Both the position numbers and the translations under genes were made by a program. Under the pieces are notes generated by a model that saw only the letters and a list, made by a program, of their open reading frames with translations, was not told the DNA's origin and made no database searches. This document shows, piece after piece, positions 1 through 64,000 of a stretch of DNA of 64,000 nucleotides. The DNA lies in the NCBI GenBank assembly GCA_002297045.1, contig DBJE01000013.1, positions 127,791 to 191,790 of the forward strand, written 5' to 3'. Numbering within the stretch: position 1 is the first letter of the stretch; every line of letters begins with the position of its first letter. Source of the DNA: Bacillales bacterium UBA784. GTDB taxonomy: Bacteria > Bacillota_I > Bacilli_A > RFN20 > CAG-288.

Positions 1-1407
1 AAAGGACAGGGATATGACCATATCTCTGCCTTTGCCTTCAAACTTTCTAAGGATGCAGAAAGGGAAGTGGAAAGCGATCCGGAGGAAGGAATCTTCCGTT
101 CCCTTTCGGAAGCCATCAAGACGAGGAAAAAGGGTAATCCTGTCCGTGCCGTATTCGGCGAGGGTATTCCTCTCGACCTTAAAGGCAAACTGAGGAAGAC
201 CTTCGATATCAAACCGGACGATTTGATTCAGGTCGGCGGACGGTACCATAATAATAAGGATTTAAGGAAGTTCCCTTACTTTGGAAACAAGGCGTTGAAA
301 AACGTCCCCTGGGAAAGCAAGGAACTCTCCGAGGTGGTGAACGGAGAGTCTTTGCTCGATGCCATCGAGAAAAAGGATAGGCTTATCCATGTTCCTTATC
401 AGTCCTTCGATGCCTTCGTGAAGCTTCTCCAGGAGGCCGCCATTGCTCCCGATGTCGTTTCCATTAAAGCTGCCATTTATCGTGCAGCCAATCATTCTAA
501 GGTGGTCCGCGCCCTCTGCCAGGCTGCCCGCAACGGAAAGAAAGTGACTTGCAGGGTTGAATTAAGGGCTCGCTTTGATGAAAGCAGCAATAGGCTCATT
601 TCCAAGAAACTGAGAGATGCCGGCGTGGATGTCCTTACCGGACTTGAAGGATTCAAGGTCCATGGCAAGGTAGTAGTCATCAAACGGAAAAAGAAGAACG
701 ATATTGCCGTTGTCTCTACCGGAAACTTCCATGAGGGGAACGCCTCCCTTTATACCGACTGTCTTCTTTTCACGGCGAATAAGAAAATAACCGAAGATGT
801 CCAGAGCATTTTCAAGTTCCTTGCTAAGCCCTTCACCCAGCCTACCTTCCATAAGCTGTTTGTCTCTCCGAACGATAGGCAGAAGCCTTTTGAGAAGCTT
901 ATCGATCAGGAAATCAATAATGCCAGAAAAGGTCTCCCGGCATCCATCTGTATCAAGATTAACCACATTACGGATGAAAAGAGGGTAGAATGCCTCTATC
1001 GGGCAAGCCAGGCAGGAGTAAAACTGAAACTTCTTGTCCGCGGGAACTGCTCGCTTGTCCCTGGCATTAAAGGACTAAGCGAGAATAGGGAAATCCATGG
1101 CATCATCGACCGATATCTTGAGCATTCCCGTATCTTCATCTTTGAAAATGGCGGGAAACCTCTTTATTATAGGGGCAGTGCTGATTTCAGGCCGAGAAAC
1201 CTTTATAATCGTGTAGAAGTTGTTACTCCGGTCTACGATAAGGAATGCCAGCGACGGCTACAGGAGATTTTCGACTTAGGATTTGCCGATAACACCAAGT
1301 CTTTCCTTATCGACGGGAAAGGCACCAATGAGAGATTCCTTAAAGGACCGAACAAAGTCGAATCACAGAAGGAACTCTATCTTGCCCTTTCTTCGGATAA
1401 GAAATAA
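1..1407 (+). CDS. ppk: Polyphosphate kinase 1 (PPK1), C-terminal ~468 codons; the 5' end lies outside the window
   Basis: The frame of track ORF 67..1407 stays open back to base 1. PPK1 motifs are present: HVPYQSFD, SIKAAIYR, NGKKVTCRVEL-ARFDE, GSADF-PRN. TAA at 1405-1407. AGG at 1189-1191 falls where PPK1s have Met (SADWM-RN). Confidence 0.9.
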   Translation, partial: KGQGYDHISAFAFKLSKDAEREVESDPEEGIFRSLSEAIKTRKKGNPVRAVFGEGIPLDLKGKLRKTFDIKPDDLIQVGGRYHNNKDLRKFPYFGNKALKNVPWESKELSEVVNGESLLDAIEKKDRLIHVPYQSFDAFVKLLQEAAIAPDVVSIKAAIYRAANHSKVVRALCQAARNGKKVTCRVELRARFDESSNRLISKKLRDAGVDVLTGLEGFKVHGKVVVIKRKKKNDIAVVSTGNFHEGNASLYTDCLLFTANKKITEDVQSIFKFLAKPFTQPTFHKLFVSPNDRQKPFEKLIDQEINNARKGLPASICIKINHITDEKRVECLYRASQAGVKLKLLVRGNCSLVPGIKGLSENREIHGIIDRYLEHSRIFIFENGGKPLYYRGSADFRPRNLYNRVEVVTPVYDKECQRRLQEIFDLGFADNTKSFLIDGKGTNERFLKGPNKVESQKELYLALSSDKK

Positions 1408-1469
1408 ATGAGAGAAATTTCGTCATCTTTTCTCTACACCTTTATAATGAAGAAAAGAAGGGCCAGCCT

Positions 1470-2381: not shown

Positions 2382-2576
2382 TCCTTTTTCCCTGCCTGCC
2401 TTGCTTTTTTCGGTTGCTGGTTTTTTCTTTGGTCTTATTGAAACCGGTCGTCTTTCCACAAATTAGAAGAAAGGCTACGTTTGTTTCTTCTCCTGGCTGT
2501 GTCCGTTCCTTAGGTAAAGGCTTTCATCTTTTTTCCTCTTTTTCTTTTCCGGATTGTTCCTATAATATCTGTTCGT

Positions 2577-6829: not shown

Positions 6830-6844
6830 TTTAGAAAAAAGAGA

Positions 6845-6880
6845 CCTCTGTCTGAAGAACTTCGGACAGAGGCTTTTTTC
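6845..6880 (+). terminator. Rho-independent terminator after the ABC exporter operon
   Basis: CCTCTGTC (6845-6852) pairs with GACAGAGG (6865-6872), with an inner GAAG/CTTC extension, followed by a T6 run at 6874-6879. Confidence 0.85.
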
Positions 6881-7024: not shown

Positions 7025-9967
7025 ATGAACAAGAAAACAAAATTCGGTCTGTCTTTGTTAAGCCTTATTCTTCTTGCCTCCTGCCATACGAACAATTCTA
7101 ATGCCTCTTCTTCTGCCACAGAGCCTGCTTCTCCAAGCCAGCGGGTTACTGAGCCTCAGCCTACGGAAAAGCCGACCGCTAAGCCGACAGATGGATCTTT
7201 ATCCAATAGCGAAGAGCCTTCGGAAACGACAAAGCCTTCTGTGTCTGTCGTTGAAGAGTTTGCTATCATAGTCGATGCAGGCGAAGGGGCAACGATAATC
7301 GGTCTTCCTGCTAAGGCTAAGGAAGGGGAAACGGTTTCTTTTACGGTTACCTTGGCCGCTGAGAAAGAGCTCTCCTATGTCACCATCGACGGGGAGAATA
7401 CCTTAGATTCTAATGAACAGGGAGTCTATTCCTTTGTCAGGCCTAAGCATGCTCTGACTGTCTCTGCCATCACCCAGGATAAGCGGTATAACAATACGGT
7501 CACTCAGGTCGAAGGTGCCACTATCGCCCTTTCTTCCACTTATGCCAAAAAAGGGGAGAAGATTGATGTCCGTGTCACGATCTCTGACCCTGCTAAGTCT
7601 ACCCCCACGGTCAAGGTTGACGGAACGGATGTTGAGATGGCCATCACCGGCGATGAGGGAAGGAAGACCTTCACAGGAAGCTTCACCCAGCCTGGGAAAG
7701 ACGTCTCTGTTGTCGTTACTTTAAATGATGCACCGGCAGCCCCGGCAAAGTATGCCATCGAGGATGAGACCGGTGACGGAGTCATCGTCAAAGGTCCTTC
7801 TTCTGCGGCAAAGGGAGAGAAGGTTACCTTTGTCCTCGGACTTGAGGAAGGATATGAATTCTCCGGCGATGTCAAAGTCTATAAGAAGGGTGAGGAAGCC
7901 ACTCTCGTCGACGTGACAAAGGAAGAAGACGGATCCTATTCCTTCACTAGGCCGGATTATCCGGTTGTCATCACCCGGGAGACGAGTGCCTCTATCTTCC
8001 AAATCAATGTCGAAGGGGAAGAGGGCAAGCTTGGAAAAGAGAATGTCAAAGCTCCGGAATATGCTGTCTATAACACGAAGGTCACGTTGACTGCCAAGGG
8101 AAATGAGACCTATGACGTAGGGGATATCCTTGTCGACGGACAGCCGGCGACAAAGGAAGAGGATGGCTCCTATTCGTTCACTAGGCCTTCCCATGCCGTC
8201 ACCATCAAGGTTGTCTCTGCTGTCCACTACTATCCTGTCAAACTTGTTAACTCTGACCATGTCACCCTTTCCGCCTATACCTATGATGAGAAAACGAAGA
8301 CCTATAGTCCTATCGCAAAAGAAGGAATCAGGTATTCCGACCACCTTTATATTAAGGCTACCGTCAATAATCCTGAAGGAGAGGAATATGCGGTTGATTC
8401 CGTTAAAGTCAAAAATGCTACGGATGGGAAAGCATCTGATAGGACACTCAATGCCGATGGCTATTATGAGTTTAAGTCCCAAACTATCAGTTCTGATTTT
8501 GGACTGGAAGTCGTAGTAACAGAAGATAAGGTGCTACTTGCTGCAGATAGCCCTTTGGTTGGAACACATGCCGGCTTTAAAAAAGGATATAGTGGGTTAG
8601 CCGACGGAAAGCTCATCTTGAACCGCTTTGGAAAGGGTTATTTTGACGATGCTGCCGTAACGAGGCAGAATTACGATTCATCGGCGAAGACGTTTGAATT
8701 ACAGAAAGGAACCGATACGTATAAGGCCGGCTATTTTGACTCCGGTCTCATTTATGTCAATACTGGTACGTCTTCCTTCGCATTAGACAAAATCTATTTT
8801 TATCTATCCAATGCTTCTTCTCTGAAAACCAAATATGTTCTCCTTGATGGAGGAACTTCTTTGTATAGTTCAACTAGGATGCTTATCGAAATCGGTGACG
8901 GAAATAAGACTGTCTACGCCCTTGTGAATAAAACGGACGAGTCAGTTAAATCCGTCAGCCTTAACTTGAAGCAAGGACAGGGAATCACTTCCACTGGCGC
9001 CGTCTTTGAACTTAAGGAGGGGGAAACTTCCCTTGGATACTATCAGAACGATGAGGGAAAACTGGTAAAATACACACTTATTACCGGGACTTATACCGGA
9101 GACCTCGGCTCGATTACGATTGACGGCCTTGGCAAGGCATCCGTAGTTAAAGGGGAAGAAACCAAAGAGGCAACCTACACGATGACTTCTGACGGAAAAT
9201 ACATTTCCCTTGTTCTTGATAATCAGACCTATTTCCTGGCACTTGAAGATAAAACTTATAGTTATGTCCGATATGTGTCTGGTGATTACTATGGTAGGAG
9301 GCTTGGAAAGAATAGTAGCAGCTATGCTTTGGAATGGCATCTTTCGGCTAAGTTCACTGCTGCGACAAGCAAATACGCTGATCCTGTGGAGGGAACATTT
9401 GATGCAAGCGGAAACTTTACTGCTTCCGGATATACATTAGTTTCGATTTCCCCTGATCAGAAAGGCATTGTTGTCCGTAAGGGCACTGGCAGCAGCGCTA
9501 GCTATTATGTGATGACCTCTGATGCAACTGGTAAATCTGATCTTACTTTCGCCTCTATCGGTGATGCTACTTCCTTTGTCGCCACCATTCATGGTTCGAA
9601 AACCGGAGCCATTACTTCCTCTGTCTACTTCGATGGAAAAGACTATCATTGGGGAACAATCTCTACCGTGGATTTTGCTACAGCTGGGACTGCCTTTACC
9701 TTCACTGACAATGATAAGAAAGTCTATAATTTGGTGAACAGGAACGGCAAAGTTGCTGTCAATAGCCTTGTCGGTGAGTATTCCTCGACTGAAGCGGAAA
9801 ATAGTCTTGGCAAGCTAGTTCTAAACGTTGACGGAACTGGAACGCTTGGGGAAACGGCCATAACCTATACTGTCAATGATGAGAAGACTATTACGATAGT
9901 AGCCGGCGAGTCGACCTATAAAATGGTCTTAGATTCAGATAAGAAGACTTATACGACTCAGAAATAA
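7025..9967 (+). CDS. Large surface lipoprotein with tandem beta-rich (Ig-like / InlB-B-repeat-like) modules
   Basis: Signal peptide with lipobox LLASC (Cys20), then a Ser/Pro/Thr/Glu-rich linker, repeated ~80-aa modules, and a ~480-aa unique C-terminal region. Confidence 0.85.
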   Translation: MNKKTKFGLSLLSLILLASCHTNNSNASSSATEPASPSQRVTEPQPTEKPTAKPTDGSLSNSEEPSETTKPSVSVVEEFAIIVDAGEGATIIGLPAKAKEGETVSFTVTLAAEKELSYVTIDGENTLDSNEQGVYSFVRPKHALTVSAITQDKRYNNTVTQVEGATIALSSTYAKKGEKIDVRVTISDPAKSTPTVKVDGTDVEMAITGDEGRKTFTGSFTQPGKDVSVVVTLNDAPAAPAKYAIEDETGDGVIVKGPSSAAKGEKVTFVLGLEEGYEFSGDVKVYKKGEEATLVDVTKEEDGSYSFTRPDYPVVITRETSASIFQINVEGEEGKLGKENVKAPEYAVYNTKVTLTAKGNETYDVGDILVDGQPATKEEDGSYSFTRPSHAVTIKVVSAVHYYPVKLVNSDHVTLSAYTYDEKTKTYSPIAKEGIRYSDHLYIKATVNNPEGEEYAVDSVKVKNATDGKASDRTLNADGYYEFKSQTISSDFGLEVVVTEDKVLLAADSPLVGTHAGFKKGYSGLADGKLILNRFGKGYFDDAAVTRQNYDSSAKTFELQKGTDTYKAGYFDSGLIYVNTGTSSFALDKIYFYLSNASSLKTKYVLLDGGTSLYSSTRMLIEIGDGNKTVYALVNKTDESVKSVSLNLKQGQGITSTGAVFELKEGETSLGYYQNDEGKLVKYTLITGTYTGDLGSITIDGLGKASVVKGEETKEATYTMTSDGKYISLVLDNQTYFLALEDKTYSYVRYVSGDYYGRRLGKNSSSYALEWHLSAKFTAATSKYADPVEGTFDASGNFTASGYTLVSISPDQKGIVVRKGTGSSASYYVMTSDATGKSDLTFASIGDATSFVATIHGSKTGAITSSVYFDGKDYHWGTISTVDFATAGTAFTFTDNDKKVYNLVNRNGKVAVNSLVGEYSSTEAENSLGKLVLNVDGTGTLGETAITYTVNDEKTITIVAGESTYKMVLDSDKKTYTTQK
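7253..8524 (+). repeat. About five tandem ~80-aa protein modules inside the lipoprotein gene
   Basis: The recurring module end is G(S/V)YSF(T/V)-AGG-P...(V/I)T(V/I). KEEDGSYSFT-AGG-P occurs twice (around 7917-7975 and 8150-8210) and GVYSFV-AGG-PKHALTV occurs once. With AGG=Met this gives the F-x-M-P ending common in such repeats. Confidence 0.6.
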
Positions 9968-10007
9968 TAAAAGTACAATCGCTAGAATTTCTTTGTCCGA
10001 ATCAAAA

Positions 10008-17603: not shown

Positions 17604-19190
17604 ATGGAAGAAAAAAAGAAAGTACTGTCTGTCCATAATCTCCGTGTTTCATTTAAATCGGATTACGGGATCGTCCATGCCGTCCGCGGCGTCTCTTTCG
17701 ACCTCTACAAAGGGGAGACCCTTTGTATAGTCGGAGAATCGGGAAGCGGAAAATCGGTCACTTCAAAGACCATCATGGGTATCCTTCCTCCATCGGCGAG
17801 GATTGAGGAAGGAAGCATTGATTTCGAGGGTGAAGACCTGACTAAGGTGTCTGAGGAGGAATTCCATAATATCCGGGGGAAGAAGATAGGAAGGATCTTC
17901 CAGGATCCTCTCTCTTCCCTAAACCCAATCAGGAAAGTCGGAAAACAGATTACGGAGGCAAGGCTCATCAACAGAAACAGGCTTGACCGCCTTTTCGAAT
18001 CAAAGATTCAGAAGGAAAGGACAGCATTGAAGAACGCCCAGTCAAAGAGAAGCAGCGAGAAGGAAAAGACCTATGCTGCTGAGGAGTTCTTCCTTTCCGA
18101 CAGCAAGAAGAAACTCGCAGATCTTCTCTATTCCCATCCCGAATGGTCTAAGGCGGATAAGAAAGAAGTGATTCGGGAAGAGAAGAAAAAGCAAAAGGAC
18201 GGCTATAAGAAAATCAAAAGCGAGGGAAAGAAAAAACGAACGGAAATCGATCGTGAGTATCATCAGGCTGCTCCCTCTCTTAAGGCAGCCCTCAGCCAAA
18301 AGAAGAAGATTGCCAAGAAAGAAGTCTCTCTTTACTATGCTAAACTGAAAAAGAAAAAGAAAAGGCAACTGCTCAGTCTGAAGAAAGAAAGGACGCTATG
18401 TGACAATCTTGAAACGGCAAAAAAGGATTTTTCCGCTAAGAAGAAACAGATTGAAGACGAATTCATCTCCAAGACGAAGATCACAAAGGCAAGGGCTAAG
18501 GAAAAGGCTCTTTCAGTCAGGAAGGAAGTCGGTATTCCTCAGCCGGAGCTCCGCTTTAAGCAGTATCCCTTTGAGTTTTCTGGAGGAAGGCGGCAACGTA
18601 TTGTCATTGCTATCGCCCTTACGGCCAATCCGGAAATCCTTATCTGCGATGAACCGACTACTGCTCTGGATGTGACGATTCAGGCCCAGATTCTCGAACT
18701 GATCAATAAGATTAAGAAGGACCGGAACAGGTCAATTATCTTTATCACCCATGACCTTGGCGTTGTTGCCAATAGGGCTGACCGGGTAGCGGTCAGGTAT
18801 GCCGGTAAGATTGTCGAAGTCGGTACGGTCTATGAAATCTTCTTTGAACCGAAGCATCCTTATACCTGGGCACTTCTCTCTTCCATTCCGGACATTGACT
18901 CTAAGGAGAAACTTGATGCCATTCCTGGTACTCCGCCTAATCTTGTCCACCCTCCGAAAGGGGATGCATTTGCCGAACGGAACAGATATGCCCTTAAGAT
19001 TGACTATGAATATGAACCGCCTGAATTCACTCTCTCTCCCACCCATAAGGCCTCTACCTGGCTACTCTATAAGAAATTCGCACCTAAGGTAACGAGGCCC
19101 CCGATTATCGAGAAGAGAATACAGCGGGCATTAGAGGAGGAAAAAGAATATGAACAGAAACAAAAAGAACAAGGAAAACCTTCAGCCTGA
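17604..19190 (+). CDS. Opp/Dpp-type ABC ATPase (OppD-like) with a ~170-aa Lys-rich insert
   Basis: Walker A GESGSGKS, Q-loop IFQDP, signature FSGG-(AGG)-RQR, Walker B ILICDEPTTALD, THDLGVV, and a C-terminal oligopeptide-ATPase extension. ATG 17604 follows AAAGGAAG. Confidence 0.9.
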   Translation: MEEKKKVLSVHNLRVSFKSDYGIVHAVRGVSFDLYKGETLCIVGESGSGKSVTSKTIMGILPPSARIEEGSIDFEGEDLTKVSEEEFHNIRGKKIGRIFQDPLSSLNPIRKVGKQITEARLINRNRLDRLFESKIQKERTALKNAQSKRSSEKEKTYAAEEFFLSDSKKKLADLLYSHPEWSKADKKEVIREEKKKQKDGYKKIKSEGKKKRTEIDREYHQAAPSLKAALSQKKKIAKKEVSLYYAKLKKKKKRQLLSLKKERTLCDNLETAKKDFSAKKKQIEDEFISKTKITKARAKEKALSVRKEVGIPQPELRFKQYPFEFSGGRRQRIVIAIALTANPEILICDEPTTALDVTIQAQILELINKIKKDRNRSIIFITHDLGVVANRADRVAVRYAGKIVEVGTVYEIFFEPKHPYTWALLSSIPDIDSKEKLDAIPGTPPNLVHPPKGDAFAERNRYALKIDYEYEPPEFTLSPTHKASTWLLYKKFAPKVTRPPIIEKRIQRALEEEKEYEQKQKEQGKPSA

Positions 19191-21902: not shown

Positions 21903-24308
21903 CTATTTTCCTTTAGAGTGAAGATAGCCGCTGATTTCCGAGACGGTCTTAAACTGATGGAGTCCGTCTTTTTCCTGGATTAGGAGGGTAGGGGCAATCT
22001 GGATGTGATGTTCTTTGGCAAACTCGAGTCCACCTTGGTCGGCGACAATCAAATCATAGTCGATTCCTGCCTGGGCGAGGAGTCTTTTCGCCACTTTGCA
22101 GTTCGGGCAGGTCGAAGTAGTGACTAGAATTGGTTTTGCCGCCTTTATCGATGGGGTGCTATTTTTTTCACCGAGAGACACTGCCGTTGAGGGAATATCC
22201 TTATTTGGCGTTTCCTTTCCGAAAAGCTCGTCCGGTTTATAAGTTTTTCTCGTCCTGAATTCACTTGCCTTCCCGTCATTCCAGTTTTTCACCGGACGGT
22301 AGTAGCCGGTGATACGGGAATAGACTTCCGCTTCCTTGTGACAGATCGGACATTCGAAGTGCTCTCCGGCAAGATAGCCATGCTCCGGACAGACGGAATA
22401 GGTCGGAGAAAGGGTGAAGTAAGGAAGCTTGAAGTTGTAGGCAATCTTCTTGACAAGGCTTGCCGCAGAGTGCCAGTCAGGCAGACGCTCCCCTAAAAAG
22501 GCATGGAAGACAGTTCCGGAGGTATAGAGGACCTGGAGGTTGTCCTCCCTCTCTAAGGCCTTAAAGGGATCATCCGTATAGCCGACAGGGAGATGGGAGG
22601 AGTTGGTATAAAAGGGAGCATTCCCCTTCTTTGCTGCGGTGATGATATCGGGGAAGTCCTTGACGTCGTGTTTGGCAAAGCGGTAAGTGGTGGATTCTGC
22701 CGGTGTCGCTTCCAGATTGAAGAGTGCATCGTACTTTTCCTGGTAGTCTGAAAGCTTAGAGCGCCTGTGGGTAAGAATCTCAGCGGCCAGGGCATTTCCC
22801 TGTTCTGTGGTCAGATCCCCGCCTTTGAACCAATGGGCGTTTAAAAGAGCCTCGTTCCTGCCGACCAGACCGATTGTGGAGAAGTGGTTCTTGAAGGTTC
22901 CAAGATAGCGTTTTGTATAAGGATACCTCCCTTGGTTCCTAAGTTTAGTGATGACCTTCCGTTTGATGTCAAGTGAGCGTGCGGCGATATCCCTGTATTT
23001 GTCTAGCCTTCTATAGAAGTCTTCTTTGTCCTTGCTTAGATAGGCGATGCGGGGAAGATTGAGGGTGACAACACCGATGGAACCGGTGGATTCCCCGGAA
23101 CCGAAGTATCCTCCGCCTTTTTTGCGGAGCTCACGGAGATCAAGCCGCAGACGGCAGCACCTCGAGCGGACATCGCTCGGCTTCCTGTCAGAGTTGATGT
23201 AGTTAGAGAAGTAGGGGGTTCCATACTTTGCGGTCCTTTCAAAGAGCAGGCGGTTGTTCTCATTGTCCGACCAGTCAAAGTCCTTGGTGATGGAATAGGT
23301 CGGAATCGGATACTGGAATCCTCTTCCGTTGGCATCTCCCTCAATCCTGATTTCGATAAAGGCCTTATTGACCCTGTCCCTTTCCTTCTTGCAGTCCCCA
23401 TAGGTGAAATTCTGCTCTTTTCCTCCGACGATGGCCGGGACGTTTTTCCTGTCCTCCGGAACGGTCCAGTCTAAGGTGACATTGGAGAAAGGAGCCTGGG
23501 TTCCCCATCTTGAGGGAGTATTTACGCCATAAATGAAGGACTGGATACACTGCTTGACTTCCTTATAACTGAGGTTATCGATTCTGACAAACGGAGCCAA
23601 ATAGGTATCAAAGGAGGAAAAGGCCTGTGCCCCTGCCCATTCGTTCTGCCTGATGCCAAGGAAGTTGACCATCTGGCTGCAGAGGGTGGAAAGATGCTTG
23701 GCCGGGGCCGAGGTAATCCGGCCGACCACTCCGCCAAGGCCGTCCTTGATGAGCTGCTTTAGCGACCAGCCTGCACAGTATCCGGAAAGCATCGACAGGT
23801 CGTGAAGGTGGAAGAAGCACTGCTTATGGGCATCGGAAATCTCTTTATCATAGATTTCACTTAGCCAGTAGTTTGCCGTGATGGCGCCGGAATTAGACAG
23901 GATAAGCCCGCCAAGACTCCTCGTCACGGTAGAGTTCTCCTTCACCCGCCAGTCCTTTTCCGTTCCAATATAGCCGTCGACCAGTTTCTTGTAGTCGATG
24001 AGGGTGTTCTCGGCATCGCGGACCTTCTCATGCTGATTCCGGTAAAGAATATAAGCTTTGGCAGTCTTGGCATAATTGCACTGCCTTAAGGCTTTCTCGA
24101 CTTCGTCCTGAATTTCTTCGACCGAGGCTATCTTCCTGTTCTTGGCATTCCTGGATGCCTCGACGATAAGCTCGATTGCTCTTGCCATCGTGGAGACGTC
24201 CCGTGCCGGAATTTCCCCAGTGGCAATAAATGCCTTTGCCACGGCGTTTTCGATTTTTTCTGCTTCAAAGGCGACCTTTTCGCCGTTCCGTTTAATAATG
24301 CTTTCCAT
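21903..24308 (-). CDS. nrdD: Anaerobic ribonucleoside-triphosphate reductase (class III) with a C-terminal glutaredoxin/NrdH-like domain
   Basis: N-terminal ATP-cone (IIKRNGEKV.F..EKI), S-(AGG)-CCRLRLD, Zn site CPEHG...CPIC, glycyl-radical motif RITGYYRPV (Gly codon 22305-22307). An extra ~85 aa follow, with CPNC (22098-22109) in a thioredoxin-fold context. Confidence 0.93.
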   Translation of the reverse strand: MESIIKRNGEKVAFEAEKIENAVAKAFIATGEIPARDVSTMARAIELIVEASRNAKNRKIASVEEIQDEVEKALRQCNYAKTAKAYILYRNQHEKVRDAENTLIDYKKLVDGYIGTEKDWRVKENSTVTRSLGGLILSNSGAITANYWLSEIYDKEISDAHKQCFFHLHDLSMLSGYCAGWSLKQLIKDGLGGVVGRITSAPAKHLSTLCSQMVNFLGIRQNEWAGAQAFSSFDTYLAPFVRIDNLSYKEVKQCIQSFIYGVNTPSRWGTQAPFSNVTLDWTVPEDRKNVPAIVGGKEQNFTYGDCKKERDRVNKAFIEIRIEGDANGRGFQYPIPTYSITKDFDWSDNENNRLLFERTAKYGTPYFSNYINSDRKPSDVRSRCCRLRLDLRELRKKGGGYFGSGESTGSIGVVTLNLPRIAYLSKDKEDFYRRLDKYRDIAARSLDIKRKVITKLRNQGRYPYTKRYLGTFKNHFSTIGLVGRNEALLNAHWFKGGDLTTEQGNALAAEILTHRRSKLSDYQEKYDALFNLEATPAESTTYRFAKHDVKDFPDIITAAKKGNAPFYTNSSHLPVGYTDDPFKALEREDNLQVLYTSGTVFHAFLGERLPDWHSAASLVKKIAYNFKLPYFTLSPTYSVCPEHGYLAGEHFECPICHKEAEVYSRITGYYRPVKNWNDGKASEFRTRKTYKPDELFGKETPNKDIPSTAVSLGEKNSTPSIKAAKPILVTTSTCPNCKVAKRLLAQAGIDYDLIVADQGGLEFAKEHHIQIAPTLLIQEKDGLHQFKTVSEISGYLHSKGK

Positions 24309-37206: not shown

Positions 37207-38118
37207 ATGACAGGAATAATCGAAATCGAACACCTCTCTAAGTCTTTTGGTTCAGTCAAGGCGGTCGATGATTTAAGTCTTTCCGTACGGAAGGGGGAAC
37301 TTTATGCTTTCCTTGGCGTCAATGGCGCAGGAAAGTCGACAACCATCAACATTCTTTGCGGTCAGCTGACAAAAGACACGGGAAAAATCTTTATTGACGG
37401 ACATGACCTAGATTCCGGAAGGGCAGTGATTAAACGGAAGCTTGGGGTCGTTTTTCAGAATTCGGTACTCGATGCCCATCTATCGGTGTATGACAATTTA
37501 GCAAGCCGTGCCTCTCTTTATGGAATCAAGGGGCAGCAATTGAAAGACAGAATCGATGAACTTGCAAAGAGGCTTGACTTCTCCTCTCTGAGGAAGAGAA
37601 CGGTTGGTAAGCTTTCCGGAGGCCAGAGACGGAGAATCGATGTTGCCCGTGCCCTTATCCATGAGCCGCAGATTCTTATTCTTGACGAGCCGACAACGGG
37701 ACTTGATCCGCAGACACGGGTCAATCTTTGGAATGTCGTCCAGAACCTACGGCAAAAGAAAGAAAGGACGGTCTTTCTTACCACGCACTATAGGGAAGAG
37801 GCTGCGGATGCGGACTATGTCGTCATACTCGATTCGGGAAAGATTGCCGCTGAAGGAACGCCGGTGGAACTGAAGAACAAATATACTGGCGACTTTATTA
37901 CCCTTTATAATCAGAAGGAAGATTTGGTCAAGACTCTGAATCTCCCCTATGAAAAGAAAAAGGATTCGTTCCGTATCAGGGTTCCTTCGACTAAGGATGC
38001 CCGGAATCTTTTGATTGAGCATCCCGAAGTTTTCGATGATTTCGAAATCACGAAGGGAAAGAGGGATGATGTCTTTCTTGCTGTGACTGGTAAGAATCTG
38101 GAAGGAGGAAGGAAATGA
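37207..38118 (+). CDS. ABC-2-type exporter ATPase (DrrA-like)
   Basis: Walker A GVNGAGKST, signature LSGGQRRR (AGA-CGG-AGA at 37627-37635), Walker B ILILDEPTTGLD. ACAGGAGGGA RBS. Confidence 0.9.
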   Translation: MTGIIEIEHLSKSFGSVKAVDDLSLSVRKGELYAFLGVNGAGKSTTINILCGQLTKDTGKIFIDGHDLDSGRAVIKRKLGVVFQNSVLDAHLSVYDNLASRASLYGIKGQQLKDRIDELAKRLDFSSLRKRTVGKLSGGQRRRIDVARALIHEPQILILDEPTTGLDPQTRVNLWNVVQNLRQKKERTVFLTTHYREEAADADYVVILDSGKIAAEGTPVELKNKYTGDFITLYNQKEDLVKTLNLPYEKKKDSFRIRVPSTKDARNLLIEHPEVFDDFEITKGKRDDVFLAVTGKNLEGGRK

Positions 38119-40252: not shown

Positions 40253-40330
40253 TGGTGGCCCTGAAGGGACTTGAACCCTTGGCCCCCTGATTCGAAGTCA
40301 GATGCTCTAATCCAACTGAGCTACAGGGCC
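40253..40330 (-). tRNA. tRNA-Arg (anticodon UCG), CCA encoded
   Basis: Reverse complement GGCCCTG-TA-GCTC-AGTTGGATTA-GAGC-A-TCTGA-CTTCGAA-TCAGG-GGGCC-AAGGG-TTCAAGT-CCCTT-CAGGGCC-A-CCA. Full cloverleaf, anticodon TCG (reads CGN, not AGG). Confidence 0.92.
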
Positions 40331-52600: not shown

Positions 52601-52677
52601 TGGTGACCCCAAAGGGATTCGGACCCTTGAATCCAGCCTTGAGAGGGCTGTGACTTAAACCGCTTGTCGATGGGGCC
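52601..52677 (-). tRNA. tRNA-Glu (anticodon CUC), CCA encoded, atypical T-loop
   Basis: Reverse complement GGCCCCA-TC-GAC-AAGCGGTTTAA-GTC-A-CAGCC-CTCTCAA-GGCTG-GATTC-AAGGG-TCCGAAT-CCCTT-TGGGGTC-A-CCA. Closely resembles Bacillus tRNA-Glu, but position 55 is C rather than the near-universal U. Confidence 0.8.
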
Positions 52678-52964: not shown

Positions 52965-54047
52965 ATGAGCGAAGAAGAGAAGAAAGTCGAAGTTGCTCCG
53001 GCCGAAGCCGAAGCCAATGTCAGGCAGAGCATTGAACATAAGCCTGATGACCCGGTCGTTTCCCCTAAGGCACTGCTTGCCGCAGGATGCCATTTCGGAC
53101 ACCGTGTTTCCCGTTGGAATCCGAAGAGGAGCAAGTATATCTACGGGAAGCGTAACAACCTTCATCTTATCGATTTGAACAAATCTGCTGCTCAGAGGCA
53201 GGTTGCCTACCAGGCCTTAAAGGATATTGTTTCCAAAGGCGGAAAGGTTCTCTTTGTCGGAACTAAGGCGTATGCCCAGAAGGCTATCACCGAGGAAGCC
53301 ATCCGTTCCGGTTCCTTCTATGTTGCTAAGCGTTGGCTTGGCGGCACCCTCACCAACTTCCATACTATTTTAAAACGTATCGGATTACTTCGTACGATCG
53401 AGCAGGAAGAATTATCCGGCGAATTAGAGAAACTTCCGAAGAAGGAAGCTGCCGAACGTCTTAAACTGAAAGCTAAATTATCCGCTAATCTGGAAGGCAT
53501 CAAGGAAATCCGCAAGCTTCCGGAAGCTGTTGTCATTGTCGATCCGAAGACTGAACATAATGCCGTTGCTGAGGCCCGTCTCCTCCACATCCCTGTTTTT
53601 GCCTTAGGCGATACCAACACTGATCCCGATTTAATCGACTACCTTGTTCCGGCAAACGATGATGGGGAAGCTTCCATTCGTTTGATTGTCGGCTTATTTG
53701 CCGATGCCGTTGTCGAAGGAAAAGGCGGCGAGCCGGTCTATGCCTATAAGGATGCTGATGCTGCTGCCCAGACGAGGGCTGACAGGCTCAAAGGTGTTGA
53801 CCAGACCGAGCAGATTAAGTCTATCCGTGCCAAGCTCCGTGATGATGCTATCGCAAGGCGTAAGAACGGAAAACGTAATGCCCGTAAACGTTTCATCAAG
53901 AAGAACTTCCATCGCTTCGGTGATCAGAATAAGCCGGAAGGGGAGAATAAGCCGGCTGCCGATGGAGCTGCTAAGCCCTCTGATGCTGCTGCCGAGACCC
54001 CTGCTGCTCCTGCTACCAATGCTGAGAACAACGGAGAAGCCAAGTAA
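52965..54047 (+). CDS. rpsB: 30S ribosomal protein S2 with N- and C-terminal extensions
   Basis: AAGGAGG RBS plus ATG 52965 (track start 52836 rejected). HFGH..S-WNPK-(AGG)-SKYIYGKRNNLHLIDL and other S2 motifs. ~100-aa Ala/Lys/Pro-rich C-terminal tail. Confidence 0.92.
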   Translation: MSEEEKKVEVAPAEAEANVRQSIEHKPDDPVVSPKALLAAGCHFGHRVSRWNPKRSKYIYGKRNNLHLIDLNKSAAQRQVAYQALKDIVSKGGKVLFVGTKAYAQKAITEEAIRSGSFYVAKRWLGGTLTNFHTILKRIGLLRTIEQEELSGELEKLPKKEAAERLKLKAKLSANLEGIKEIRKLPEAVVIVDPKTEHNAVAEARLLHIPVFALGDTNTDPDLIDYLVPANDDGEASIRLIVGLFADAVVEGKGGEPVYAYKDADAAAQTRADRLKGVDQTEQIKSIRAKLRDDAIARRKNGKRNARKRFIKKNFHRFGDQNKPEGENKPAADGAAKPSDAAAETPAAPATNAENNGEAK

Positions 54048-54946
54048 TGTCTGAGAGGATTGAATTAATCAAGCAGCTCCGTGAACGTACCGGAGCTGGA
54101 CTAAGGGACTGCAAGAAGGCTCTTCTTGCCAACGGAAACGACATCGATAAGTCAATCGATTGGCTCCGTGAGAAGGGTATTGCCAAACAGGCAAAGAAGG
54201 CTGCAACCCGTATTGCCGCAGAAGGTGTCGCTTGGTTAAGGACGGAAGGAAACAAAGCTGCCAGGATTGAAGTCAATTCCGAAACTGACTTCGTTGCCAA
54301 TTCTGATCCTTTCCGTGCCTTGGTCAAAACCATCAATACTCTTGTCCTTAAATACAGGCCGAAGACTGTCGAAGAAGCCAAAGAGCTGAAAGACGAGAAC
54401 GGCAAGAGCATTGCCGACCTCTTTGTCGATGCCGGCGTCAAGCTTGGAGAAAAGCTTGATTTCCGTCGTCTTGTCACTGTCGAAAAGGGTGCTGATGAAG
54501 TCTTTGGCCCCTATATCCATAGGAACGGAAAGATTGCCACCCTTGTCGTCTTAAAGGGCGGAAATGCTGAAGTGGCCAATAACATCGCTCTTAATGTCTG
54601 CTCCAATAATCCTTCTTATCTACATGAAAACGACATTCCCGAAGAAGTCATCAACAAGGAAATGCAGATTCAGCTCGAAGCGAGCGAACAGGATCCGAAG
54701 TTTGCCAGCAAGCCTGAGGCAATCAAACATAAGATTGTCCGCGGACGTGTTGAAAAGACTCTCTTTGAGTCCGTTCTTGATGATGAACCTCTTGTCACCG
54801 ATGATCAGAAGACCGTTGCCCAGTATTTAAAGGAGAATGGTGCTTCCCTTGTCTCCGCTTATCGTTATGCTGTCGGCGAAGGCATTGAAAAACGGCAGGA
54901 TGATTTTGCTGCCGAAGTTGCTGCCCAGGCGGGCGGAAGCAAGTAG
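54047..54946 (+). CDS. tsf: Elongation factor Ts
   Basis: LRERTGAGL-(AGG)-DCKKAL, WLREKGIAKQAKKA, EVNSETDFVA. Confidence 0.95.
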   Translation: MSERIELIKQLRERTGAGLRDCKKALLANGNDIDKSIDWLREKGIAKQAKKAATRIAAEGVAWLRTEGNKAARIEVNSETDFVANSDPFRALVKTINTLVLKYRPKTVEEAKELKDENGKSIADLFVDAGVKLGEKLDFRRLVTVEKGADEVFGPYIHRNGKIATLVVLKGGNAEVANNIALNVCSNNPSYLHENDIPEEVINKEMQIQLEASEQDPKFASKPEAIKHKIVRGRVEKTLFESVLDDEPLVTDDQKTVAQYLKENGASLVSAYRYAVGEGIEKRQDDFAAEVAAQAGGSK

Positions 54947-55016: not shown

Positions 55017-55733
55017 ATGCCAAAGTATAAACGTATCCTGCTGAAGATTTCCGGTGAAGCCTTGAAAGGCAAGGGAGATATCTATGATAAGGAATATCTT
55101 GAATCGGTCTACAAGATTGTTTCCCAGATTGCTTCTGCCGGGACAGAGGTCTGCCTTGTTGTCGGCGGAGGGAATATCTGGCGTGGAAGAGAGGCCGAAT
55201 CCTTAGGAATAGAAAAGACAACCGGAGATTATAGGGGAAGGTTGGCTACAATCAGGAACGCCATGTGCCTGCAGTCTTTTTTTGAAAACCGGGGGCTTGT
55301 CACCCGTGTCATGAGCTCGATTCCGGTTGCCCAATGCTGTGAACCCTACATCCGCCGAAGAGCCTTGCGCCATTTGGAAAAAGGCCGCGTAGTTATCTTT
55401 GCCGGCGGAATCGGGTCTCCTTTCTTTACCACGGACACCTGTGCCGCGCTGCGGGCAAAGGAGAGGAACTGCGATGGTATCTTTAGGGGAAAGAATGGCG
55501 TGGAAGGGGTCTATGACGATGATCCGAGAACGAACAAGAATGCTAAGCTAATCAAAAAAATCAGTTATGCCCAGCTTCTTAGCGAGAACCTTAAGGTCAG
55601 GGATAATACCGCTGTCGGTCTTCTCCTTGACTCTTCGGTCGATGTCCGCGTGTTCAATAGGAATGATCCGGAGAATGCCGTCCGGGTCCTCAACGGAGAA
55701 GATATCGGTACTATTGTGACTAACAGAAAATAG
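55017..55733 (+). CDS. pyrH: UMP kinase
   Basis: KRILLKISGEAL, VVGGGNIWRG, DY-(AGG)-G-(AGG)-LATI-(AGG)-NA, FAGGIGSPFFTTD. Confidence 0.95.
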   Translation: MPKYKRILLKISGEALKGKGDIYDKEYLESVYKIVSQIASAGTEVCLVVGGGNIWRGREAESLGIEKTTGDYRGRLATIRNAMCLQSFFENRGLVTRVMSSIPVAQCCEPYIRRRALRHLEKGRVVIFAGGIGSPFFTTDTCAALRAKERNCDGIFRGKNGVEGVYDDDPRTNKNAKLIKKISYAQLLSENLKVRDNTAVGLLLDSSVDVRVFNRNDPENAVRVLNGEDIGTIVTNRK

Positions 55734-57403: not shown

Positions 57404-58608
57404 GAGAGAACATTGTCGTCTTAGGGGCCACAGGAACAATCGGAAGCCTTACCTTATCCCTTCTTCGCTATTCCTTCGACTATTCCTTGGTCGGTATTTC
57501 TTTTTCCTCGCACTATGAAAAGAGGGAGGAATCCCTGCTTTATTTCCCTGAGCTTAAGTATGTCGGTATCGTCGATGAAAAGGCCGCCGCGGCCTTTTCC
57601 TCTCTCCACCCTTCCTATGTCGTCTTTAGCGGAAAAGATTCATCCTTAAAGGTAATTGAGGCATGCAAGGGTGCCACTGTCTTTAACTCCATCATGGGTA
57701 ATGACGGCCTTCTTCCTTCTTTGAAGGCCATAGATTTAAACCATGATCTTCTTCTTGCCAATAAGGAATCTTTGGTTATCGGCTCTTCCTTAAGGAAAAA
57801 AGCCAGGGAACACTCCTCTTCCCGCCTTTTCCCTGTCGATAGCGAGCATGTTGCCTTGGCTAAGCTCTTAGAAGAAGTCAAGGAACGGGGAATCGGCAAA
57901 AAGGCCATCCTGTCCCTAAGGATTACAGCCTCCGGGGGAGCCTTGAGAGATCTCCCTCTTAGCGCAAGGAAGGATGCCACACCGGAAAGGGTTCTCCGCC
58001 ATCCTACCTGGCAGAGGGGAAGCAAGATTACCGTCGATTCGGCAACTATGGTCAATAAGGCCTTTGAAATCAGGGAAGCGAAAGCGCTATTTCCAAGGCC
58101 AGGGAAGGTATCCTACCATGCCGTGGTTTGTAAGGAATCCCTTGTCCACGCCTTAGTCAGCTTCGTGGGCCAAGGAGGCAGAACGGAAACAATCTTTGAA
58201 TATTCTCCCTGTGATAGGCGTGTTTCTATCGCCTACGCCCTTTCCAAAGGCACCCTTCCTAGGCATAGAAACAGCCAGGAAGACAGGGAAAAAGTCAAAA
58301 AACTTCATTTTCTTCCTCTCGACCCTCTCCGCTATCCCTGCTTCCCGCTTGCCTTAAAAAGGAACTCCCTTTATGGAAACGAAGGAAGGATCTTCTTTAA
58401 TGCCGTCGACTCTTTGGCTATCTCTTCCTTCCTGAAGAAGGAAAGGGGATACCTAGACATCGGAAAATGTTTATCCTATACTTTAAATCACTTTCCCTGT
58501 GTGGAGGCTCTGACGAAAGAGAACCTTCCCCTTCTTCTCTCAAAAGCGGATGCCTTTGCCAAGGAAGTCATCGAAAAAGAGAAAAATAACACATGCCAGA
58601 ATTTTTAA
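57400..58608 (+). CDS. dxr: 1-deoxy-D-xylulose-5-phosphate reductoisomerase
   Basis: VLGATGTIGSLTL, LANKESLV, PVDSEH, ITASGGA, HPTWQ-(AGG)-GSKITVDSATMVNK. Confidence 0.92.
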   Translation: MRENIVVLGATGTIGSLTLSLLRYSFDYSLVGISFSSHYEKREESLLYFPELKYVGIVDEKAAAAFSSLHPSYVVFSGKDSSLKVIEACKGATVFNSIMGNDGLLPSLKAIDLNHDLLLANKESLVIGSSLRKKAREHSSSRLFPVDSEHVALAKLLEEVKERGIGKKAILSLRITASGGALRDLPLSARKDATPERVLRHPTWQRGSKITVDSATMVNKAFEIREAKALFPRPGKVSYHAVVCKESLVHALVSFVGQGGRTETIFEYSPCDRRVSIAYALSKGTLPRHRNSQEDREKVKKLHFLPLDPLRYPCFPLALKRNSLYGNEGRIFFNAVDSLAISSFLKKERGYLDIGKCLSYTLNHFPCVEALTKENLPLLLSKADAFAKEVIEKEKNNTCQNF

Positions 58609-60756: not shown

Positions 60757-63700
60757 ATGGATGATCTTCTCCGCCGTTTCCTTACGAAAATCGGAATATC
60801 TGCTCTGGACTCCTTTTCCCAGGGTTCTTTTTTGGACTGCCATGTGGAAAAAGAGAGCAATCGGGTGGTCGGCACTATTCTCTTCCCCCATTATCTCGAC
60901 TATGCTTCCTATACTAGGCTGTTTGACACGATTTCCTCTTTTACGGCCAGAGGGGGCTTTGGCATTGCCTTAACCTTTAAATATAAGGATGAAGCCTTCT
61001 ATTTCCCCCGCCTTCTTGAGGAAGTCAAGGAAGCGAAGGGCTTTTCTAGGTTAGATGACGTCATTCTTTCCGACGAGGAAAAGAAGGCCGTCTTCTTTTA
61101 TTCCTCTGCCGCAGGGGCAAACGAAATTGACGAAGAGACGCGCTGGCTGAGAAATTTCCTTGATTCCATCACTTCTTCCTACCATATTCTTACCCAGGAA
61201 AAGGTCGACTATAATGACGACTTTGAGAAGAAGCAGGACGAAAACTACAAAAAGAGTGTCAGGCAGGCTGCGGAGAGAAGGGAACGGAACAAGGAGATCA
61301 ATAGGAACTATCAGCCCTGCAAGTTAAAGGACATCACCAATTTCCGCAAAGTCATCTGCTGCGGGACTATATTCAAAATCGAAGACCGTCAGACAAGAAA
61401 AAGGACGACCATCCGGAAAATCGAGTTTTCCGATGGTTCCGATTCGATATCGGCTAACCTGTTTGAAGGAAAGAGAAGGAGCCTTGAAGAACTGAGGAAA
61501 TATGACGTCGGTGTCAAGATTGAGGTCAAGGGCCAGCCGACCTACGATAAGTTCTCCCACAATGAGCTTGTCCTTTCCATCGATGAGATCAAAGTCCTTC
61601 CTCCCGACGAGCTAAGAAGGGATACCTATCCAAGAAAACGGGTCGAGCTTCATCTCCATACCAGAAGGTCCGCTTTTGACGGAGTCGCCTCTATTTCCGA
61701 TTATGCCTCCAGGGCGAAGAAATGGGGATGGAGTGCCCTTGCCGTCACCGACCACGGCGTCGTCCAGGCCTTCCCGGAAGCCCAGAAAGCCAGCAAGAAG
61801 ACAGGAATCAAGATTCTATATGGAAGCGAATTATATAGGCTCGAAGACCACTTCCGTTATATCTATAACCCCTGCGACCGGGTTCTGAAGAACGAGACCT
61901 TTGTTGTGTTCGATACCGAGACCACAGGACTTTCCTGCCGGTATGGCCGGCTGATTGAGTTCGGTGCCGTCAAGAGGGATCCCTCCGGACAGATTCTCGA
62001 CACCATCGATTTCTTCATCAATCCGGACAGGAAGCTTTCCTCTTTCTCCATTAATGTCTCCCATATCAGCCAGGAACAGGTCGACCACGGCAAGCCGATT
62101 AAGCAGGCTTTAAAGGACATCAAGGAATTCTTTAAGGATAGCATCATCGTCGCCCATAACGCCTCCTTCGACTTTGACTTCATTAATGAGGCATTGAAGA
62201 ATAACGGCAGGGAGACGCTCACTAATCCGGTCATCGACACTCTTCCTCTCTCCCGCTATCTATATCCGGAGAGGCGAAGCCACCGGGAGGAGGCCTTGGC
62301 AAGAAGGCTGCAGATTGATTTTGATTCAACCGGTGCCCACCGGGCAAATTATGATGCCGGACACCTGGCTACGATTTTCTCTTCCATGCTTTCCACTCTT
62401 GCTATACGGAATCCTGAAATAAAGACACACAAAGATTTAGCAAACCTCCCTGTCACTAAGGAAATGCTTTTGTCCTCTCATCCATACCATTGTACGGTCT
62501 ATGCCAAGAACAGGGATGGACTGAAGGATTTATACCGGATTATTTCTGAGTCCTCGACGATTTATATCGGTAAGGACCAGACTCCTTATACCCCAAAGAG
62601 CTATCTGGCCAAATACCGAAAAAACCTTCTTATCGGTTCCGCCTGCCTTAATGGTGAGGTCTGGGAGGCGGCAAGGAACAAGTCCAAGGAAGAACTGAAA
62701 AAGAAGAGGGACTTCTATGACTTTATCGAAGTCCAGCCTCCGGAGAATTATATCTACCAGGTCCATAAAGGGGAGATCGATTCTCTTGAAGAAGTCAAAA
62801 GGATCATCAAGGATGTCATTACGACCGGAAAGGAAGAGGGAAAAAGGGTGTGTGCCACAGGCGACTGCCACTATCTTAATCCCCAGGATAAAATCTACCG
62901 GGATGTCTTTATTTCCGCCAAGGGACTAAAGGGCGCACGTCATCCTCTCTGCCTTCAGCCTTACGACAATGCCTCGGAAGAGGCAAAGCAGAAATGGTAC
63001 CGTAACCCTCTTCCTAATCCAAACCAGCATCTGCGTACGACCGACGAAAGGAGGGAGTGCTTTTCCTTCCTTGGCGATAAGGCGTTAGAAGAGGAGATTG
63101 TCATTGATAATCCCTGCAAGGTATCCGATAGGATCTCCTCCGACATTAAGCCGACGAAGGATAAACTATATCCTCCGTCGATGCCAGGGTGTGAACAGAG
63201 GCTGATTGACCTTACTTACAAGACCGCCAAGGAAAGGTACGGAGATCCCCTTCCTGAAGTCATCGAACAGCGTCTGAAGACGGAGCTCGATGGTATCGTC
63301 TCCAACGGTTATTCCGTCATTTACTGGCTCTCCTCTCTCATCGTCCGATGGTCCAACACCCAAGGGTACCTGATTGGGTCGCGAGGTTCGGTCGGCTCTT
63401 CGTTGGTTGCGACAAGGTCCGGGATTACCGAAGTGAATCCTCTTCCTCCCCATTACCGCTGCCCGAACTGCCACCATCTGGAGTGGATTAGTGATCAGAG
63501 CGTAGACTCCGGCTTTGACCTTCCGGCGAAGAAGTGTCCTAAGTGCGGGGAAGAAAGGATAAAGGACGGCCAGAACATTCCTTTCGCCACCTTCCTCGGC
63601 TTTCATGCCGAGAAGGTTCCCGATATCGACCTGAACTTCCCTTCCGACTTCCAGTCGATTGCCCATGAGCATAGGAAGGAAAGGCTGAATAAGACCGGAA

Positions 63701-64000
63701 ACCACTGCTATAAAGCAGGAACCATTCAGACTGCGCAGGAAAAGAATGCCAGAGGCTATGTCCTTGGCTATTTCGAATCCTTAGGCAAAGATACGAGCAA
63801 AATCCGAAATGCGGAGCTAGACCACATCGCCAATGGGTGTGTGGGGACAAAGCGGTCTACCGGACAGCATCCGGGAGGCGTTATTGTCATTCCGGCGGGA
63901 AGGGAGGCCTATGACTTCACTCCTGTCCAGTACCCTGCCGACGACCCTAATTCCACCTGGAGGACGACCCATTATGACTTCCACGCCATCCACGACAATG
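60757..64000 (+). CDS. polC: DNA polymerase III PolC-type, N-terminal ~1081 codons; continues beyond the window
   Basis: The frame is open from ATG 60757 to the window end. It is absent from the ORF track because no stop is reached. It contains an OB-fold region, PHP motif HLHT-R-(AGG)-S, exonuclease motifs FVVFDTETTG and VAHNASFDFDF, GSRGSVGSSLVAT-(AGG)-SGITEVNPLPPHY, Zn finger CPNC...CPKC, and DIDLNF. Confidence 0.95.
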   Translation, partial: MDDLLRRFLTKIGISALDSFSQGSFLDCHVEKESNRVVGTILFPHYLDYASYTRLFDTISSFTARGGFGIALTFKYKDEAFYFPRLLEEVKEAKGFSRLDDVILSDEEKKAVFFYSSAAGANEIDEETRWLRNFLDSITSSYHILTQEKVDYNDDFEKKQDENYKKSVRQAAERRERNKEINRNYQPCKLKDITNFRKVICCGTIFKIEDRQTRKRTTIRKIEFSDGSDSISANLFEGKRRSLEELRKYDVGVKIEVKGQPTYDKFSHNELVLSIDEIKVLPPDELRRDTYPRKRVELHLHTRRSAFDGVASISDYASRAKKWGWSALAVTDHGVVQAFPEAQKASKKTGIKILYGSELYRLEDHFRYIYNPCDRVLKNETFVVFDTETTGLSCRYGRLIEFGAVKRDPSGQILDTIDFFINPDRKLSSFSINVSHISQEQVDHGKPIKQALKDIKEFFKDSIIVAHNASFDFDFINEALKNNGRETLTNPVIDTLPLSRYLYPERRSHREEALARRLQIDFDSTGAHRANYDAGHLATIFSSMLSTLAIRNPEIKTHKDLANLPVTKEMLLSSHPYHCTVYAKNRDGLKDLYRIISESSTIYIGKDQTPYTPKSYLAKYRKNLLIGSACLNGEVWEAARNKSKEELKKKRDFYDFIEVQPPENYIYQVHKGEIDSLEEVKRIIKDVITTGKEEGKRVCATGDCHYLNPQDKIYRDVFISAKGLKGARHPLCLQPYDNASEEAKQKWYRNPLPNPNQHLRTTDERRECFSFLGDKALEEEIVIDNPCKVSDRISSDIKPTKDKLYPPSMPGCEQRLIDLTYKTAKERYGDPLPEVIEQRLKTELDGIVSNGYSVIYWLSSLIVRWSNTQGYLIGSRGSVGSSLVATRSGITEVNPLPPHYRCPNCHHLEWISDQSVDSGFDLPAKKCPKCGEERIKDGQNIPFATFLGFHAEKVPDIDLNFPSDFQSIAHEHRKERLNKTGNHCYKAGTIQTAQEKNARGYVLGYFESLGKDTSKIRNAELDHIANGCVGTKRSTGQHPGGVIVIPAGREAYDFTPVQYPADDPNSTWRTTHYDFHAIHDN

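Follow-up and report, generated by a model that had tools for sequence, protein, structure and literature searches.

The codon AGG is very probably read as methionine, and not as arginine, in the gut bacterium that carries the 64,000-nucleotide stretch of DNA analyzed here (the window), which comes from contig DBJE01000013.1 of Bacillales bacterium UBA784 (GCA_002297045.1). A preliminary description had proposed this reading from the sequence of the window alone. Codon usage was counted in 48 long, non-overlapping open reading frames (ORFs; 17,987 codons), in which AGG occurs in frame 406 times (226 per 10,000 codons) and ATG 132 times (73 per 10,000). The remaining codons for arginine range from 19 to 86 per 10,000 (CGA 19, CGG 86, AGA 77) at a GC content of ~46%. 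AGG is thus a frequent codon rather than a rare one, as had been said of it earlier. ATG is the predicted start codon in 35 of the 48 ORFs.

Sixteen AGG sites had been singled out in the preliminary description as positions at which well-known protein families hold an invariant or near-invariant methionine. For all 16, the codon, coordinate, strand and peptide context proved to be correct, as did the control arginine codons: the ABC signature SGGQ-AGA-CGG-AGA (37627..37635, + strand), in which conserved arginines stand on non-AGG codons, the AGA at 1195 and the two CGT codons of OppF at 20005 and 20011. Conservation of methionine holds for most of the cited sites; it does not extend to every AGG, and many AGG codons occupy variable or generally hydrophobic positions rather than conserved methionines.

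The UMP kinase gene pyrH (55017..55733, + strand) carries seven AGG codons, at 55233, 55239, 55254, 55464, 55485, 55599 and 55659. Among 117 homologues of less than 80% identity, methionine is the commonest residue at six of the seven sites (in 76–117 of the 117 homologues, and in all 117 at 55239) and isoleucine at the remaining one. The CGN and AGA codons of the same gene all stand opposite arginine, lysine or variable polar columns, and none stands opposite methionine. The AGG codons at 55233, 55239 and 55254 correspond to ATG in all three standard-code outgroup orthologues, and the same is seen on the + strand for EF-Ts GAGL-[AGG]-DCKKAL (54104..54106), ribosomal protein S2 WNPK-[AGG] (53127..53129), Dxr HPTWQ-[AGG]-GSKITVDSATM (58015..58017) and PolC HTR-[AGG]-S (61666..61668). 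The second PolC site, VAT-[AGG]-SGITEVNPL (63415–63417, + strand), is ATG in the sole outgroup aligned at that site.

Three of the cited genes lie on the − strand. In the active-site region of the glycyl-radical enzyme NrdD, S-[AGG]-CCRLRLD (23160..23162), 127 of 147 representatives, clustering being at 50% identity, have methionine. In PGG-[AGG][AGG]-RYGIP (30923..30928) of a 975-aa FAD-dependent oxidoreductase (GltD-like), the AGG at 30926 is opposite methionine in 119 of 119 homologues and that at 30923 opposite methionine in 89 and leucine in 30. NV-[AGG]-SSPGAGKT (33083..33085), just ahead of the P-loop of a HypB-like GTPase, aligns with methionine in all three solved HypB structures (4LPS, 2HF8 and 2WSM). 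On the + strand, the PPK1 motif SADF-[AGG]-PRN (1189..1191) reads SADWMTRN in E. coli PPK1 (1XDO), and the adjoining arginine (1195–1197) is AGA. For OppD, methionine is present in three of four aligned PDB domains at VAV-[AGG]-YAG (18795..18797, + strand) and in one of four at SGG-[AGG]-RQR (18588–18590, + strand), namely M. tuberculosis DppD domain 1, the others having glutamate or glutamine. The lipoprotein repeat end YSFT-[AGG]-P (7949..7951, + strand) has the support of its context only; its motif YSF(T/V)-AGG-P occurs in three copies (7439, 7949 and 8183), with AGG in each.

AGG was then compared with its counterparts in relatives that use the standard code. Syntenic loci from three such outgroups (L036, L039 and L040), whose PyrH proteins are 75%, 72% and 65% identical to that of the window, use ATG at 169–232 and AGG at 32–50 per 10,000 codons. 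Nine genes, from S2 to PolC, were aligned codon by codon with AGG masked. For 89 AGG codons, the 252 aligned outgroup cells hold methionine 108 times, leucine 33, isoleucine 32, valine 12, lysine 5 and arginine 3, and the corresponding codon is ATG in 42, 31 and 35 cases for the three outgroups. Where all outgroups have methionine, the window has AGG in 20 columns and ATG in 9. Where all outgroups have arginine (62 columns), it has CGT 30 times, CGG 12, CGC 11, AGA 5, CGA 3, AAG once and AGG never. Outgroup arginine or lysine without methionine is found at only 4 of the 89 AGG sites, as against 117 of 130 CGN or AGA sites (Fisher p = 5e-41).

Of the 406 AGG codons in frame in the window, 132 were evaluated by alignment to standard-code homologues; they lie at methionine or hydrophobic columns and hardly ever at arginine or lysine. 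Deeper sets were assembled for PyrH (117 homologues), the 975-aa oxidoreductase (119) and NrdD (150 representatives at 50% identity). Query-anchored phmmer alignments were used for NrdD in place of MAFFT because many NrdD homologues appear to carry inteins, and the other two sets were re-run likewise. The top NrdD representatives include many that greatly exceed the query in length (up to 1,879 aa) and match it in two to five stretches, which may reflect frequent inteins; in the NrdD of the window (21903–24308, − strand), the NRDD domain is uninterrupted and is accompanied by a weak glutaredoxin-like stretch at the C-terminus (residues 728–758). Across the 50 AGG sites in these sets, the commonest residue is methionine at 28, leucine at 6, isoleucine at 2, valine at 1, lysine at 3 and arginine at 1, and across 90 CGN or AGA sites it is arginine at 67 and lysine at 9.

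A Codetta-style log-likelihood computed over 4,901 aligned columns returned the standard amino acid for 60 of the 61 sense codons. For AGG (126 columns), methionine was best, by 292 nats over leucine and by 431 over arginine. The earlier statement that AGG alone deviates is therefore upheld: AGG falls at conserved methionine columns across unrelated families, and the remaining codons are standard. In addition, nine proteins from the first 16 kb, which were absent from the other tests, were re-translated with AGG as methionine and scored against Pfam. Scores rose for 11 of 14 domains and fell for three by at most 1.8 bits; gains were recorded for ABC_membrane (108.9 to 140.9 and 105.3 to 126.4), PP_kinase_C (190.6 to 212.8), Pan_kinase (120.1 to 138.8) and Ppx-GppA (106.4 to 119.1).

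A change of AGG to methionine had been cited in the preliminary description, from a Codetta screen, for an uncultivated Bacilli clade. This was right, and the species is the same. Positions 1–12383 of the window match the genome of Bacillales bacterium UBA783 (GCA_002297105.1, contig DBJF01000007.1) at 98.97% identity over 12.4 kb, and the parent contig of the window matches it at 99.3% over 20.9 kb. The Ppx protein encoded at 1470–2381 is identical to one on DBJF01000007.1. UBA783 is listed in the source data of Shulgina and Eddy (eLife 2021) as s__UBA7642 sp002297045, for which Codetta gave AGG as methionine (PMC8629427), and the window is thus ~99% identical to a published UBA7642 genome. 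That study reported the reassignment for eight faecal metagenome-assembled genomes, UBA783 among them, from three species; GTDB places UBA7642, a genus for which later papers use the name Candidatus Enterosoma, in family CAG-288, order RFN20, of the uncultivated Bacilli (PMC8629427). Published values for sp002297045 are 228–235 AGG, 58–63 ATG, 18 CGA, 103–111 CGG and 67–73 AGA per 10,000 codons at a GC content of 0.458–0.462, and recoded UBA7642 genomes as a whole range over 209–235 for AGG and 59–69 for AUG (PMC8629427), to be compared with 226 AGG and 73 ATG in the window. Uridylate kinase also serves as the example alignment in that account (PMC8629427). A baboon origin rests on how the paper describes the UBA genomes; run SRR1747054 could not be linked through the literature to the wild-baboon project PRJNA271618. 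The host of the window is therefore the species in which this reassignment was published; it is already known here, and the window adds no new biology in that respect. The preliminary description knew of no biochemical characterization, and papers from 2026 still call the charging of the tRNA 'hypothesized' or place the case among 'known or suspected' reassignments.

The boundaries of the recoded clade are visible in PyrH. Arginine at the methionine columns of PyrH, as databases translate it, is found in only three clusters at 90% identity, namely the window's own, one 90% identical and one 87% identical to it, and the next relatives (76% identical) have methionine at those columns. Codon exchange within the clade was examined against a sister species (locus L038, 87%). 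Ten ATG codons of the window stand opposite AGG in the sister species and two AGG codons opposite ATG; AGG pairs with CTT or TTA ten times, with AAG a few times and with AGA or CGN never, and AGA pairs with CGT, CGG and AAA. AGG thus trades places with ATG but at no site with AGA or CGN, which puts AGG and AGA into separate synonymous classes. Bacilli bacterium HGM10888 (loci L013 and L016) is ~77% identical to the window's lineage in the nucleotide sequence of the housekeeping genes that they share, uses AGG at 278–302 per 10,000 codons and has a tRNA(CCU) identical to that of the clade. It is a fourth species-level lineage, beyond the three species of the 2021 paper.

ARAGORN finds only two tRNA genes in the window, tRNA-Arg(UCG) (40253..40330, − strand) and tRNA-Glu(CUC) (52601..52677, − strand). 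Neither decodes AGG, as had been noted before: the former retains the arginine identity base A20, and the latter is irrelevant to AGG and syntenic in the outgroups. A scan of one genome per GTDB species was made for a tRNA(CCU) with G70, C71 and A73 followed by a nearby tRNA(CCG). Three relevant genomes matched, those of Bacillales bacterium UBA4682, uncultured Mollicutes UMGS1247 and Bacilli bacterium HGM10888, and no representative of the window's own species did so in that scan. In all three, tRNA(CCU) is separated from tRNA-Arg(CCG) by a 13-nt spacer and is flanked at its opposite end by a 609–614-aa gene and tRNA-Leu(CAG). The window's species was reached through the neighboring 612-aa protein. 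The P0124 contigs end 67–119 bp upstream of the gene and miss the tRNA, and P0121 led to the HGM10888 lineage, not the window's. The European Nucleotide Archive (ENA) assembly ERZ27300223 carries both the window's contig (k119_78932) and a tRNA-bearing contig (k119_77510; 166,511 bp), the latter with the same GC content (0.457) and AGG usage (226 per 10,000) as the window. At this locus (L030), tRNA(CCU) lies at 4383–4459 and tRNA-Arg(CCG) at 4293–4369, in the same tandem and with the same 13-nt spacer. The methionine-like CCU tRNA predicted earlier is thus present, although outside the window, on a different contig of that metagenome assembly.

This tRNA(CCU) gene is 77 nt long (GGCCGGGTAGCTCAGCATGGTAGAGCAACCGTCTCCTAAGCGGTTTGTCACGAGTTCGATTCTCGTCTCGGCCACCA; transcript GGCCGGGUAGCUCAGCAUGGUAGAGCAACCGUCUCCUAAGCGGUUUGUCACGAGUUCGAUUCUCGUCUCGGCCACCA) and identical in six loci, those of UBA4682, UMGS1247 and HGM10888 and those on three contigs from the window's species, k119_77510 being one of the three. 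It folds into a cloverleaf with G1:C72, G2:C71, C3:G70 and A73, an anticodon loop CUCCUAA, a D-loop (AGCAUGGUA) without A20 and no long variable arm of the leucine type. By comparison, a standard-code relative with the same gene layout (L041) has a tRNA(CCU) with G73, A20 and a GCU acceptor start. The neighboring tRNA-Arg(CCG) and the window's tRNA-Arg(UCG) keep GGAUA or GGAUUA, with A20. The window's tRNA-Arg(UCG) also has a GGCC acceptor start, G2:C71, C3:G70 and A73, all in common with tRNA(CCU). The 'Met elements' of the acceptor stem therefore do not discriminate here, and the loss of A20 is the clearest identity change.

The order tRNA(CCU) then tRNA-Arg(CCG), with an orthologous upstream gene of 612–614 aa, is maintained, and the outgroup layout is the same. 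These tRNA features and this synteny match what was published in Fig. 3C and 3D (PMC8629427); the 612–614-aa gene may be the CDA36808.1 homologue named there. A ~3.7 kb block (L030:4460–8000, with HTH_3, Peptidase_M78 and DUF4417 genes and small ORFs) separates tRNA(CCU) from the 612-aa gene in the window's species. HGM10888 lacks this block, to judge from gene calls, and so do UBA4682 and UMGS1247, to judge from a spacing of ~110–140 bp. A similar HTH_3/DUF4417 block adjoins tRNA-Glu(CUC) in outgroup L036, and the block is probably mobile, with tRNA genes as its targets.

The ancestry of tRNA(CCU) was considered from its closest matches. Among annotated phage tRNAs, its best full-length matches are to tRNA-Met(CAU) of Campylobacter phages (78–79% identity), and over its 5' two-thirds it resembles tRNA-Arg of Synechococcus phages; for the outgroup tRNA(CCU), the match is to phage tRNA-Arg along the entire length. 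The body of the clade's tRNA(CCU) may thus descend from a tRNA-Met and not from a tRNA-Arg that switched identity. Because the tRNA-Met matches come from one phage family only, they are a lead rather than evidence of ancestry. A search of E. coli genomes gave tRNA-Thr (77.5%) as the best match and was uninformative in this regard.

In this clade, AGG has very probably been reassigned from arginine to methionine and is now the main methionine codon, with ATG retained as the start codon and as a minority internal methionine codon. The dedicated tRNA(CCU), which lies in the neighborhood of the standard-code relative's ordinary tRNA-Arg(CCU), would decode AGG. Following Shulgina and Eddy (PMC8629427), methionyl-tRNA synthetase (MetRS) would charge this tRNA despite the replacement of A35 by C35, arginyl-tRNA synthetase (ArgRS) would no longer do so, A20 being missing, and tRNA-Arg(UCU) would be kept off AGG by modification of U34, by low abundance or by both. 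The same account gives the residues of MetRS that contact the anticodon as unchanged (PMC8629427).

Several observations weigh against the assignment of methionine to AGG. Some AGG codons stand at columns that are mostly arginine or lysine, including 23007 in NrdD (arginine in 72 of 148) and 32411 in the oxidoreductase (lysine in 97, arginine in 20); two N-terminal AGG codons of PPK1 stand opposite E. coli arginines, and 62305 and 62800 in PolC are likewise at arginine or lysine columns. The alignment support covers only 132 of the 406 AGG codons, and all of the evidence for methionine is comparative. The tRNA(CCU) gene is on a different metagenome contig, tied to the window by GC content, codon usage and species-level relatives and not by physical continuity. 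Finally, tRNA-Met(CAU), tRNA-Arg(UCU) and MetRS were not found in the window's 10-kb flanks or in any recoded locus. The tRNAs present in the flanks and recoded loci are Gly(CCC), Glu(CUC), Leu(CAG/UAG) and two labeled Arg. AGA is arginine in the likelihood test, and no tRNA(UCU) gene was found in the window, its flanks or the recoded loci.

The codons at arginine or lysine columns are the sole hint compatible with residual ambiguity, and such ambiguity could take the form of AGG being read mostly as methionine by tRNA(CCU) and in some share as arginine through wobble by tRNA-Arg(UCU), giving statistically mixed proteins. Wobble at U34 is named as a risk in the published account (PMC8629427). 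However, AGG occupies none of the 62 all-arginine columns and is not exchanged with AGA or CGN within the clade, and heavy use of AGG at invariant catalytic methionines speaks against frequent misreading. Moreover, exceptions at arginine or lysine columns are no commoner for AGG than for ATG; the genuine ATG codon at 30974, for example, has methionine in 68 homologues, arginine in 28 and lysine in 18. Because genuine ATG codons behave alike, we read the exceptional AGG codons as ordinary substitutions, and we consider ambiguous decoding unlikely. If true, it would be a naturally occurring example, in a bacterium, of statistical proteins that arise at a sense codon.

The other explanations fare worse. 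Under the standard code, AGG would still be arginine and the lineage would have replaced many methionines by arginine. This is the default expectation, and public gene calls use table 11; beyond that, nothing speaks for it. It would put arginine in place of invariant buried or catalytic methionines in dozens of families, and through AGG alone, and it was rejected in silico on the Fisher test (p = 5e-41), the likelihood (arginine 431 nats below methionine), the lower Pfam scores under the arginine reading and the CCU tRNA without A20, which leaves it highly improbable. Assignment of AGG to leucine or isoleucine might seem to account for the ~30% of aligned cells that are leucine, isoleucine or valine, but ATG codons show the same share, methionine leads leucine by 292 nats and is invariant at many sites across 117–119 homologues, and the tRNA is without the long variable arm of the leucine type; this assignment was rejected on the likelihood, the invariant columns and the tRNA structure, and we give it just as little chance. 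Least probable of all is an artefact, in which systematic T-to-G sequencing or assembly error, or RNA editing, makes AGG out of ATG. The same AGG codons are present at 98.9–100% identity in assemblies from independent projects and assemblers (ENA, Logan, NCBI UBA783 and JGI), the other 60 codons are normal, ATG is kept at 35 of 48 starts and a matching dedicated tRNA exists, and this explanation was likewise rejected.

Reassignment to methionine has practical consequences for any use of these sequences. Each table-11 protein of the organism shows arginine for methionine at ~2.3% of residues (406 times in the window), to the detriment of homology searches, of structure prediction and of identification by metaproteomics. 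Such table-11 versions are deposited in public databases, and the PyrH proteins of close relatives show 'R' at methionine columns for this reason. A single 64-kb window suffices to call the reassignment at very high confidence. To our knowledge, sense-codon reassignments are very rare in bacteria, and that of AGG to methionine is the sole known bacterial case.

Several further features of the window were recorded. The OppC, OppD and OppF proteins (15698–20472, + strand) are unusually long (634, 531 and 440 aa), and the ABC_tran domains of OppD and OppF match Pfam in two separate pieces, with a lysine-rich insert of ~200 residues between those of OppD. Ribosomal protein S2 (52965–54047, + strand; 360 aa) has its Pfam domain at residues 37–252 and a C-terminal extension of ~110 residues that is common to the outgroups (343–366 aa). 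Between frr and cdsA (window 55803–57403), uppS is missing from the recoded clade and also from L036, the nearest outgroup, and present in the more distant outgroups L039 and L040. A three-gene block lies at 46174–51088 (+ strand). One product is an unknown protein of 580 aa, another (565 aa) matches AAA_5 weakly, under the cutoff of Pfam, and a third (458 aa) is a DUF2357 protein; the latter two are possibly McrB-like and McrC-like, respectively, and the block resembles an island for restriction or defence. Between strains it is only 94.7% identical, compared with 98.9% in its flanks, and in the adjoining 1.5 kb (51.1–52.6 kb) other strains have resolvase, HTH and DUF3990 genes instead.

Among known systems, the AGG reassignment published for UBA7642 (Candidatus Enterosoma) is the same as that described here in species, codon-usage profile and showcase gene (uridylate kinase), as well as in the 77-nt tRNA(CCU) (A73, G2:C71, C3:G70, no A20), its tandem arrangement with tRNA-Arg(CCG) and its upstream gene (PMC8629427). 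Nothing of substance differs, and the additions are the HGM10888 lineage, the ~3.7 kb block and the occurrence of the 'Met elements' in tRNA-Arg(UCG). An organellar case of AGG read as methionine (2019, as cited in PMC8629427) has the same codon and new meaning and is convergent. It differs in its organellar genome and its tRNA set, whereas the window is part of a chromosome of the free-living bacterial type, with rpsB, tsf, pyrH, polC and nrdD. Other bacterial reassignments of arginine codons, namely CGG to tryptophan, CGG to glutamine and CGA/CGG to tryptophan (Anaerococcus, Onthovivens, Peptacetobacter and Absconditabacteria), likewise rely on a dedicated tRNA whose anticodon differs by one base from that of the new amino acid's own tRNA. 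In those genomes, however, the reassigned codon is rare and the GC content is low, whereas in the window AGG has rebounded and is now the dominant codon for methionine at ~46% GC, and CGG is a normal and common arginine codon.

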